Part shown: one piece after another, positions 35,589 to 36,475 of the stretch
Layout: the number at the start of each line of letters is the position of its first letter
Position numbering within the stretch: the first letter of the stretch is position 1
NCBI GenBank assembly: GCA_019358935.1
Contig: JAHHIK010000057.1
Coordinates: forward strand, 1-54,783
Length of the DNA stretch: 54,783 nucleotides
Direction: 5' to 3'
Source: Tolypothrix carrinoi HA7290-LM1
GTDB taxonomy: Bacteria; Cyanobacteriota; Cyanobacteriia; Cyanobacteriales; Nostocaceae
The notes under the pieces: model-generated
The model's database searches: none
What the model was told of the DNA's origin: nothing
The model's input: the letters and a program-made list of their open reading frames with translations, nothing else
Position numbers and translations under genes: made by a program

Positions 35589-35782
35589 TCTTCCAATGTC
35601 TGTGTTGTACTGTAGAACTCGCCACCACTAACATCCGTTCAACTACGAAAATATTGAATTTTGTGTTATGTCAGGATGCTCGTGGTTTAAGATTTTATAA
35701 GGAAAATGCCGAAAACCCCGGAGGAACAACAGGTACGCAGTACCGTATTCCACAGCGTAAAACCGGCGATGAAGGCTGGGCG

Positions 35783-35935
35783 CTATCCTTTATCCTGCCT
35801 TGGCAATCTCTTGATATAGTCGCGCAAAACCTCTGCTGCCGAAATTTGCTTCGACTCTGCGTATTGATTTAACTTTTCCCATTCGTCGTTACTCAATCTA
35901 AGTTGGTAAACTTTAGGTCTTTTTCTGATTGACAT
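35783..35935 (-). CDS. 50-aa ribbon-helix-helix (CopG-like) protein, not in ORF track
   Basis: Manual translation MSIRKRPKVYQLRLSNDEWEKLNQYAESKQISAAEVLRDYIKRLPRQDKG*, with a beta-strand, helix, S.AE..R helix pattern. Confidence 0.8.
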   Translation of the reverse strand: MSIRKRPKVYQLRLSNDEWEKLNQYAESKQISAAEVLRDYIKRLPRQDKG

Positions 35936-35957
35936 GGTAATGTTTTTGCACTACCAT
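35929..35957 (+). promoter_or_regulatory. Sigma70-like promoter overlapping the RHH start codon and a palindrome
   Basis: TTGACA-N17-TACCAT and an ATGGTA...TACCAT inverted repeat. Confidence 0.6.
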
Positions 35958-35964
35958 TAATCAT

Positions 35965-36475
35965 AACAGGAACGGTAATTAACCTGTATAAAAACCGAAC
36001 TGCCTAAAGGCAATCTGAACCTTCTCCCAAGGGGAGACGCTAACGCGAAGACAATTGAATCTATGCGGTTCTACTGCATTGTTCTAGTTTCCTCCTAGCG
36101 GTAGGTAAAAGATTCACTCCTTAGCTAGACGACTGGTGAATTTTGAAACGATTTGTTTCAAACTAAACAGAACTTGCAGCAATGCAACTACCGAGGGGCA
36201 CTCGGAAAGTTAACGTTTGGGAGCCAGTGCGTTGGGGAGGCAGTGCGTTGCGGAGCCAGTGCCGTGCGGAGGTTCCCTCCGTTGAGGCATCTGGCGTTGG
36301 GGTTCCCCCCGTTGTAGCACCTGCCGTCGGCGGAGCCGACAGTCACGCACCTGGCGTGGAGAGTCCCACCTCTGGGCTAGATAACGCAAGGAATCTAGTT
36401 TAAGTGGTCTCGTTTACCCTGTGAATCCCCGTGCATTTATGCCGGGGAGTGTCAATCTAACGATTACCGCAGAAC
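35965..36475 (+). ncRNA. Putative structured RNA ending in a TnpB omegaRNA-like scaffold plus flanking guide
   Basis: Multiple stems and a 5' H-type pseudoknot. ACCGAGGGGCACTCGGAAAGTTAACG...CCCACCTC...AAGTGG...TCAA resembles IS605 tnpB 3' ends. Confidence 0.55.

Follow-up and report, generated by a model that had tools for sequence, protein, structure and literature searches.

A gene-less IS200/IS605 element in a cyanobacterium carries a conserved, structured RNA leader in the place of tnpB

The question raised by this locus is what occupies the place of tnpB in an IS605-type element without enzyme genes, a decayed gene or an RNA in its own right. The window (the whole stretch of DNA analysed) is a contig of 54,783 nt from Tolypothrix carrinoi HA7290-LM1. 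The element spans 35699-36455, ends in TCAA and lies directly 3′ of TTAT (35695-35698), with a NUDIX gene on one side and a small basic ORF on the other. The genes and repeats around it suggest a filamentous cyanobacterial host, and its named relatives are cyanobacteria. An earlier note, made from the sequence, had placed TTAT at the left and TCAA at the right, and this agrees with our boundaries, with 36455 as the right end. The same note had called the element transposase- and nuclease-free, and neither tnpA nor tnpB is present inside 35699-36455. Its expectation of empty sites in relatives was also borne out, as flank alignment gave the exact empty site, TTTTAT joined to TCT[AC]ACG, in 8/8 aligned congeners (the left flank is present in 9/10 congeners, and G007 was omitted from this alignment). 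In the aligned congeners, the left flank is continuous with the right flank and there is no target duplication. Because these flanks join directly, the insertion behind TTAT was precise and made no duplication. Insertion 3′ of a tetranucleotide without duplication is the signature of IS200/IS605. In addition, two other elements of this genome, one with tnpA (on C133) and one with tnpB (on C30), have left ends to which that of our element could be aligned, and subterminal hairpin ends are common to our element and the tnpA-bearing one. The stretch 35699-36455 is a mobile, non-autonomous (PATE-like) derivative of IS200/IS605, and its excision would be carried out by TnpA in trans. In the wider family, 65 of the 69 recognised left ends were preceded by TTAC (38) or TTAT (27), and the flanks were diverse (147 distinct 14-mers among 179 ends). 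In L331 and L356, two different family members stand head to tail, and the guide of the first is the left end of the second.

The features, in window coordinates, are as follows.

35695..35698, +, target tetranucleotide or TAM TTAT, outside the element; empty site in 8/8 congeners
35699..35790, +, IS200/IS605 left end with subterminal hairpin; aligns with left ends on C133 and C30
35783..35935, -, gene for a predicted 50-aa ribbon-helix-helix (RHH, Arc-like) repressor, optional in the family; weak Pfam hits
35929..35957, +, predicted sigma70-type promoter TTGACA-17-TACCAT; -35 box overlaps the RHH start codon
35934..35957, no strand, palindrome, putative RHH operator
35966..35997, +, module A, compact H-type pseudoknot with A-rich linker; covariation
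36001..36012, +, short hairpin before boxA, in a boxB-like position; 71% paired, alignment variable here
36017..36056, +, candidate cyanobacterial boxA (GAACCTT/GACAATT); primer match, interrupted at 36024-36049
36056..36135, +, module B core; covariation, 95.2% paired
36143..36187, +, variable linker with an optional hairpin (36143-36161) and a hairpin (36174-36187)
36186..36455, +, TnpB omegaRNA-type scaffold with right end; model hits on tnpB 3′ ends
36222..36357, +, 136-bp high-copy dispersed repeat inside the scaffold; more than 100 BLAST hits, relatives contiguous
36456..36475, +, host flank, candidate guide; matches the empty donor junction

The tnpB position holds an RNA leader of about 220 nt, which belongs to a multi-copy cyanobacterial family and is no decayed gene. 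Further copies of the leader were found on C97 of the same genome, with a distant one on C1. The evidence for its structure is comparative; single-sequence folding of the window was mildly above chance (z -2.0). We aligned 26 leader sequences, leaving out copies with large inserts, and tested a model in which a 5′ H-type pseudoknot and a hairpin are followed by a core of two helices, with a loop pairing downstream, and by two 3′ hairpins. In this alignment, 91.3% of cells were paired and double changes occurred in 24/51 pairs. The score was reached by 0/500 shuffles, and slid controls gave 33-47%. The pairings of module A (35966-70 with 35983-87, and 35973-76 with 35994-97) were kept in 88.5% and 89.4% of cells, with double changes in 3/5 and 1/4 pairs, respectively. 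Module B consists of a 7-bp helix, a conserved internal loop (UA-NN-SGGUU / GGUAAAA) and a second 7-bp helix, and its loop forms a pseudoknot with a strand 3′ of the lower helix. In 34 divergent members with short loops, 95.2% of the core cells were paired and 15/21 pairs had double changes, including all 3 pseudoknot pairs, and 0/500 shuffles equalled the score. Furthermore, the lower helix was fully paired (7/7) in 95/114 distinct loci. Kinship among the sequences inflates the counts of double changes; nevertheless, the many different pair types speak for a real structure.

Several pairings proposed earlier had to be revised. The long helix TGCATTG..TTCT / AGAA..CAATGCA paired in 71% of cells over 26 members, and we rejected it because its shuffles paired equally (383/500). 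The helix AAGATTCAC/GTGAATTTT does exist in the window copy but is peculiar to it and not family-wide. For CCTA/TAGG, the pairing itself stands, but in the family CCTA partners the TAGG after AGATTCA, and that TAGG is lost in the window copy. The TTGAAAC/GTTTCAA and TGCC/GGCA hairpins are present, although variable in the family. The two pseudoknots, the boxA and the inserted repeats (36024-36049 and 36222-36357) had escaped the earlier note. Meanwhile, its proposal of a covariance model and an Rfam comparison gave strong covariation and no Rfam match for the leader.

This last result held for the leaders of the window, of 8 intact loci and of 11 RHH loci. No riboswitch or ribozyme model of Rfam matched at E ≤ 5 in the window or at E ≤ 10 in the 8 intact loci. 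By comparison with consensus sequences, an identity as a group I intron or as a twister, pistol, HDV, c-di-GMP-II or preQ1 RNA was not supported. A decayed tnpB was considered too, and the leader had no nucleotide hit to any tnpB locus. The earlier note had named decayed tnpB coding sequence without covariation as a finding that would speak against its claim; the leader covaries and is unlike tnpB DNA, which the tail of the element does resemble. The reverse strand of the leader is faintly like TnpB residues ~139-166, with a best score of 8.4 bits against a shuffled maximum of 9.6. The statement that the element is not a simple deletion is thus well founded, since a conserved, covarying RNA occupies the tnpB position.

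The family is widespread. A BLAST search of the order, in which two candidates were scored for each genome, detected it in 64/301 genomes. In a phylum-wide sample of 151 genomes, 24 and 28 were positive with covariance models, and a single genome had as many as 16-18 scored copies. Pattern scans gave at least 119 loci each in the genome and metagenome collections, and loci collected in this way cannot reveal variation where the pattern fixes positions. The tnpB gene was in its normal place in 0/42 loci and in 0/80 loci. Among the 119 metagenome loci listed, none had tnpB in place; TnpB hits were seen in 4, all on the opposite strand. A right end followed the core in 103 of the 119 genome loci listed (9 truncated, 7 unrecognised) and in 95 of the 119 metagenome loci listed (15 truncated, 9 unrecognised). 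The same core sits on several IS605 right-end subfamilies: among the 119 listed genome loci, 86 core-bearing elements end in TCAA and 17 in TCAC, and these two kinds differ clearly in scaffold type. Module A was present in 78/119 listed loci, and certain elements contain it but lack the core. Leader, scaffold and end parts are modular. Because module B is missing from some ORF-less elements, and in some no boxA can be recognised, neither of the two is universally needed. In viral contigs, the narrow pattern gave 0 matches and the core pattern 2, and one look-alike without an IS end had a different boxA variant. Three plasmid records contain the family, and the 'transposase' annotated over one of them is that of the neighbouring gene.

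The tail of the element carries an omegaRNA-type scaffold, with a 5′ hairpin (36191-36205), a right-end hairpin starting at 36423 and the TCAA end. The tails of 38 TnpB-less elements share this structure, with double changes in 24/36 pairs, and the covariation extends beyond the end hairpin needed for transposition. A model built from TnpB-less tails alone scored 51.7-106.3 bits on 8/8 tnpB-locus 3′ ends of the same genome. As this TnpB-less model scores the tnpB loci, the tail is the same scaffold as tnpB 3′ ends, kept without coding constraint, and the tnpB-type, omegaRNA-like 3′ region claimed earlier is homologous to tnpB 3′ ends. Judged from sequence, the family has a candidate stand-alone omegaRNA, a homologous scaffold abutting the element end, which is interrupted and altered in the window copy. 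Rfam gave weak matches to RAGATH-18 (18.6-27.3 bits in 5/8 loci; gathering score 44.9) and to HgcC (22.9 bits in the window scaffold; gathering score 50), none of them over the leader.

The candidate guide had no other TTAY-flanked match with ≤2 mismatches in 16 nt anywhere in the genome, so it fits a role at the empty donor site only. The search for TTAT plus guide targets suggested earlier thus turned up no further target. The genome has seven full-length related TnpBs, all (7/7) with D-E-D, and for 6/7 a TTAY-preceded left end is visible in the flank shown. There were also 7 Y1 transposase hits. TnpA and catalytically intact TnpB encoded by this genome could therefore act in trans, as far as the gene content tells. 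A TldR-like partner, which the earlier note had considered, finds no backing in these intact related TnpBs or in the guide search. A close TnpB was found in 18/24 RNA-positive genomes and 18/127 RNA-negative genomes, which are kin and not independent, so that this co-occurrence is suggestive only. Six of the 24 RNA-positive genomes are without the close TnpB clade at E ≤ 1e-60. In the five of these six that were checked, other TnpBs are present, whose loci score ≤38 bits with the scaffold model. These exceptions count against the guide-cassette reading proposed below.

Upstream of the leader, the 50-aa minus-strand RHH gene described earlier corresponds to the ORF 35783-35935. Its hits to NikA-like and DUF6290 in Pfam are sub-threshold, its NCBIfam hits likewise fall below the cut-off, and no solved structural relative was found by sequence. 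The predicted monomer structure contains two helices and lacks the strand. Of 111 family loci with enough upstream DNA, 12 have an RHH gene divergent from the leader; it is an optional accessory in the family. The promoter overlapping a palindrome was also found as described, at 35929-35957 and 35934-35957, respectively. The promoter is unremarkable alone (4 promoter-like sites versus 2.1 in shuffles). In 89/94 loci, a count with duplicates kept and no chance control, TAnnnT lies 14-21 nt upstream of the first helix. A similar palindrome, ATNGTAG..N..CTACNAT, recurs over the -10 region at related RHH loci. By position and palindrome, the divergent RHH gene appears to have a putative operator over the element promoter.

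Fifteen loci with close RHH homologues were compared. Eleven of them face non-coding sequence (one family member, three with a core variant, six with another RNA, and one with module A and the scaffold). A twelfth locus has a tnpB hit, and of the remaining three, one is probably a tnpB remnant, one has an unrelated context and one lies at a contig end. The other RNA (L262, L263, L268, L269, L274 and L275) is non-coding, ~300 nt long and divergent from the RHH genes; it ends in TAAGCTTAC in 5/6 loci and has no Rfam match. Arc proteins repress IS605 promoters (bioRxiv 10.64898/2026.09.24.754181), and in the available part of that preprint the Arc-regulated elements resemble ours in having a small, divergently oriented RHH gene and an operator that covers a bidirectional promoter. 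However, that promoter drives tnpB/tnpA, and here it faces a non-coding RNA. The part of the preprint's main text available has no mention of non-coding, PATE, standalone, boxA or cyanobacteria.

Between the two modules of the leader stands GAACCTTGACAA[CT]T, which agrees with a cyanobacterial boxA primer, taken as its reverse complement, given in the available part of PMC9769826. This boxA is intact in 159/164 family sequences, a biased sample in which many were gathered by the boxA pattern. In the window genome, 7/8 sites matching GAACCTTGA[ACT]AA[CT] lie near the 5′ end of long non-coding RNAs, namely five group II introns (two by Rfam, three by a shared start at contig ends), one tRNA array and one tmRNA-like/tRNA locus. 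A looser pattern gave 16 sites versus 9.0 expected. In a near-complete relative there were 14 sites versus 3 for the reversed control. Seven of the 14 sites are in rRNA operons and one is in a CRISPR leader, with the same motif as in the family; one is in a family member, one precedes a presumed Cas12k tracrRNA, and 4 were left unassigned. The same motif was found at rRNA leaders, the ITS, group II introns and the tRNA array. Thus, the family has a candidate boxA, that is, the host rRNA consensus near the 5′ end of an untranslated RNA. The same motif, likewise behind a short hairpin, serves boxA-Nus antitermination of rRNA and CRISPR arrays in the parts available of PMC13753749 and PMC9769826; in contrast, here it stands on a small transposon guide RNA, with putative NusB binding, in a host without detectable Rho. 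The genome has nusB, and Rho was not found in it. The absence of Rho was counted against an antitermination role, because the target of boxA suppression then becomes doubtful.

Some of the other boxA sites deserve mention. Four group II introns (L216, L217, L219 and L220) have boxA ~75 nt inside their 5′ end, and no description of this was found in the literature searched. At L218 (G000 C91:27900-29100), an 84-nt tmRNA-like match and then tRNA-like genes follow boxA, and at L221 (G000 C183:5800-8500) an array of ~20 tRNA genes does. At L454, the RNA directly 3′ of boxA is presumably a Cas12k tracrRNA, upstream of a CRISPR-DR15 array. This locus offers a parallel, in that a guide scaffold stands apart from the ORF of its nuclease.

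The copy in the window is damaged. Its boxA is divided by a 26-bp repeat (36024-36049), part of the module B pseudoknot strand is replaced and the closing CAG changed, and the closing stem of the scaffold is altered. The centre of the 136-bp repeat has more than 100 BLAST hits within the genome, and relatives are contiguous across 36222-36357. This copy is probably crippled, weak or dead and a poor guide, although it is a young insertion. Since it is absent from all aligned congeners, movement needs no intact RNA. Dispersed repeats have entered the same two spots in independent members (L007, L008 and L021; L018, L161 and L276), and this recurrence suggests that the spots are sequence-specific targets.

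A soil metatranscriptome contig of 330 nt covers a relative of the family; 168 nt of it precede the shared piece and 125 nt follow. By our own count, it runs from ~20 nt inside the leader to ~29 nt past the element end. Its depth was 10.6, whereas its neighbours had about 2, and the library may contain DNA. Such soil RNA contigs give neither strand nor start, and X19 and X20 represent small shares of the runs. The contig is a weak hint of transcription through the right end into the flank.

We propose, with a probability of roughly 0.6, that the element is a stand-alone guide-RNA cassette which uses TnpA and TnpB in trans, with the leader replacing the lost translated ORF. This reading starts from the insertion behind TTAT, the ends common with autonomous elements, the conserved structured leader and the conserved omegaRNA scaffold. 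From anatomy, mobility, conservation and homologies, we infer the following mechanism. TnpA of another element would peel and paste the cassette. Its own promoter, repressed by RHH where that gene is present, would give one untranslated RNA of ~330-350 nt reaching into the flank. The boxA may recruit NusB-S10/NusG, as on rRNA operons, and the pseudoknotted leader may protect or fold the transcript; together they would supply what the translated tnpB frame gives ordinary elements. For module B, we favour transcript stabilisation or processive transcription as its job. TnpB from trans would then bind the scaffold and trim the leader, just as other TnpBs are described to trim the omegaRNA 5′ end in the available part of PMC10278001; stand-alone omegaRNAs acting in trans are described in the available part of PMC10691335. 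After excision, the TnpB-RNA complex would cut the TTAY-flanked empty site, and the element would be copied back.

Other explanations should be weighed against this cassette. It is unlikely that module B is instead an active RNA, either a self-cleaving ribozyme or nuclease-processing site setting the omegaRNA 5′ end with no need of TnpB, or a ligand aptamer gating the guide. The near-invariant unpaired nucleotides around the 54-nt pseudoknotted core, kept across very divergent elements, would suit such an RNA. The order of the helices in module B is similar to that of the c-di-GMP-II aptamer, and the fold of module A to that of preQ1-I, and this topological likeness would suit it as well. However, the Rfam ribozyme and riboswitch models stayed silent in the window and the 8 intact loci, the soil contig keeps the leader joined to the scaffold, and TnpB is able to process its own RNA. 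We think it quite unlikely that the RNA is a TnpB decoy, a sponge or an antisense regulator that dampens autonomous elements and does not guide repair of its own site. Many copies with their own promoter could titrate TnpB, and the faint reverse-strand likeness to TnpB fits this idea, but that likeness is inside the shuffled range, and the scaffold keeps its precision right to the junction with the guide, which a functional guide requires.

We rate lower still the idea of an ordinary PATE-like remnant, whose interior would merely be carried along and whose structure would reflect ssDNA folding for transposition or shared recent ancestry. ORF-less IS605 remnants are already known, and damaged copies, including that of the window, are present at new sites. 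Against this stand the double changes with many pair types in both helices and the pseudoknot, a boxA, which exerts its action on nascent RNA, the constant spacing of the -10 box, a core common to different end families, and a leader unlike the coding DNA of tnpB. A role as a domesticated regulatory guide, paired with a TldR-like protein that is nuclease-dead, seems very improbable. In its favour are the regulated promoter and, within one genus, a few orthologous copies that are immobilised and have decayed ends. Against it, the family consists of mobile copies with ever-changing guides, the related TnpBs keep D-E-D and the genome has no TAM-flanked target.

Beyond the stand-alone cassette, we entertain a wider idea, which is tentative and which we hold doubtful. 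Cyanobacterial IS605 elements may repeatedly have swapped tnpB for dedicated RNA leaders, and the 54-nt core may be a new RNA class (an antiterminator, a TnpB-recruiting platform, a ribozyme or an aptamer), by which a gene-less element outcompetes cis guides for TnpB. If true, such an element would count as a hyperparasite made of RNA alone, and it would be a living model for the way in which a guide scaffold parts from the gene of its nuclease, the course that tracrRNAs took.

IStrons, in which a group I intron is combined with IS605/IS607, likewise have a structured RNA beside an omegaRNA inside an IS605-type element. A terminal G marks the end of IStrons. In contrast, our elements end in TCAA or TCAC, gave no Rfam group I intron match, and have an RNA that starts inside the element behind its own promoter. 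Stand-alone omegaRNAs and PATEs, as far as the available parts of PMC10691335 and bioRxiv 10.1101/2023.03.14.532601 go, share the gene-less state, the IS605 ends, the tetranucleotide insertion, the right-end omegaRNA scaffold and the reliance on trans enzymes. However, the present element is no deletion remnant. Its ~220-nt leader is unrelated to tnpB, has two pseudoknots and a boxA, and is common to several end and scaffold subfamilies, and the available parts of the PATE accounts contain no such leader. Thus, stand-alone omegaRNAs, PATEs and the RHH (Arc) repressor are already known, and the leader with its boxA was not found described. Neither Rfam nor the literature searched, supplements and subscription papers aside, had an entry or account of the leader, of its boxA or of its occurrence in several subfamilies. 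No paper in that search combined boxA, antitermination and TnpB, and the leader is not described in the available parts of PMC4143802, PMC3610870, PMC11448079 and PMC13565253. It may be noted in the original stand-alone omegaRNA report.

According to the available part of PMC10691335, it is unknown what role stand-alone omegaRNAs play. With the present family, hundreds of natural cassettes become available, in which promoter, leader, scaffold and guide are combined and the structure is defined by covariation. The family makes testable how an untranslated guide RNA gets made, kept and loaded in trans. In addition, the boxA connects transposon guide RNAs with Nus antitermination, and this in a host where no Rho was detected. 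In cyanobacteria, the leader may be a practical part for TnpB guide expression.

Some further loci were seen at the borders of the family. At L285:1501-1825, core B and an IS605-type end lie on a GC-rich contig that is not cyanobacterial-looking, and L432 has core B, an IS605-type end and a different boxA variant in a distant family of the phylum. The copies L424, L426 and L429 are orthologous and apparently immobilised in one genus, with decayed boxA and ends and a retained core; they are possibly domesticated. The leaders of six other ORF-less elements had no Rfam match, with one preQ1 hit (E=1) over a left end. Three ORF-less IS605-type elements (G000 C4:38031(-), C51:9500(-) and L273) have a divergent small gene, a module-A-like pseudoknot and no core B. 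Their scaffold is longer, and they have a boxA variant, which in C4 and L273 is clear. ORF-less IS605-type elements of G000 also contain two further leaders, unrelated and non-coding, at C28:59431(-), C48:6441(+), C34:44718(-), C86:35612(-), C40:778(-) and C93:20795(+). These loci suggest that several leader classes exist in the ORF-less IS605-type elements of G000, and one of the two further leaders occurs on two different scaffold types.
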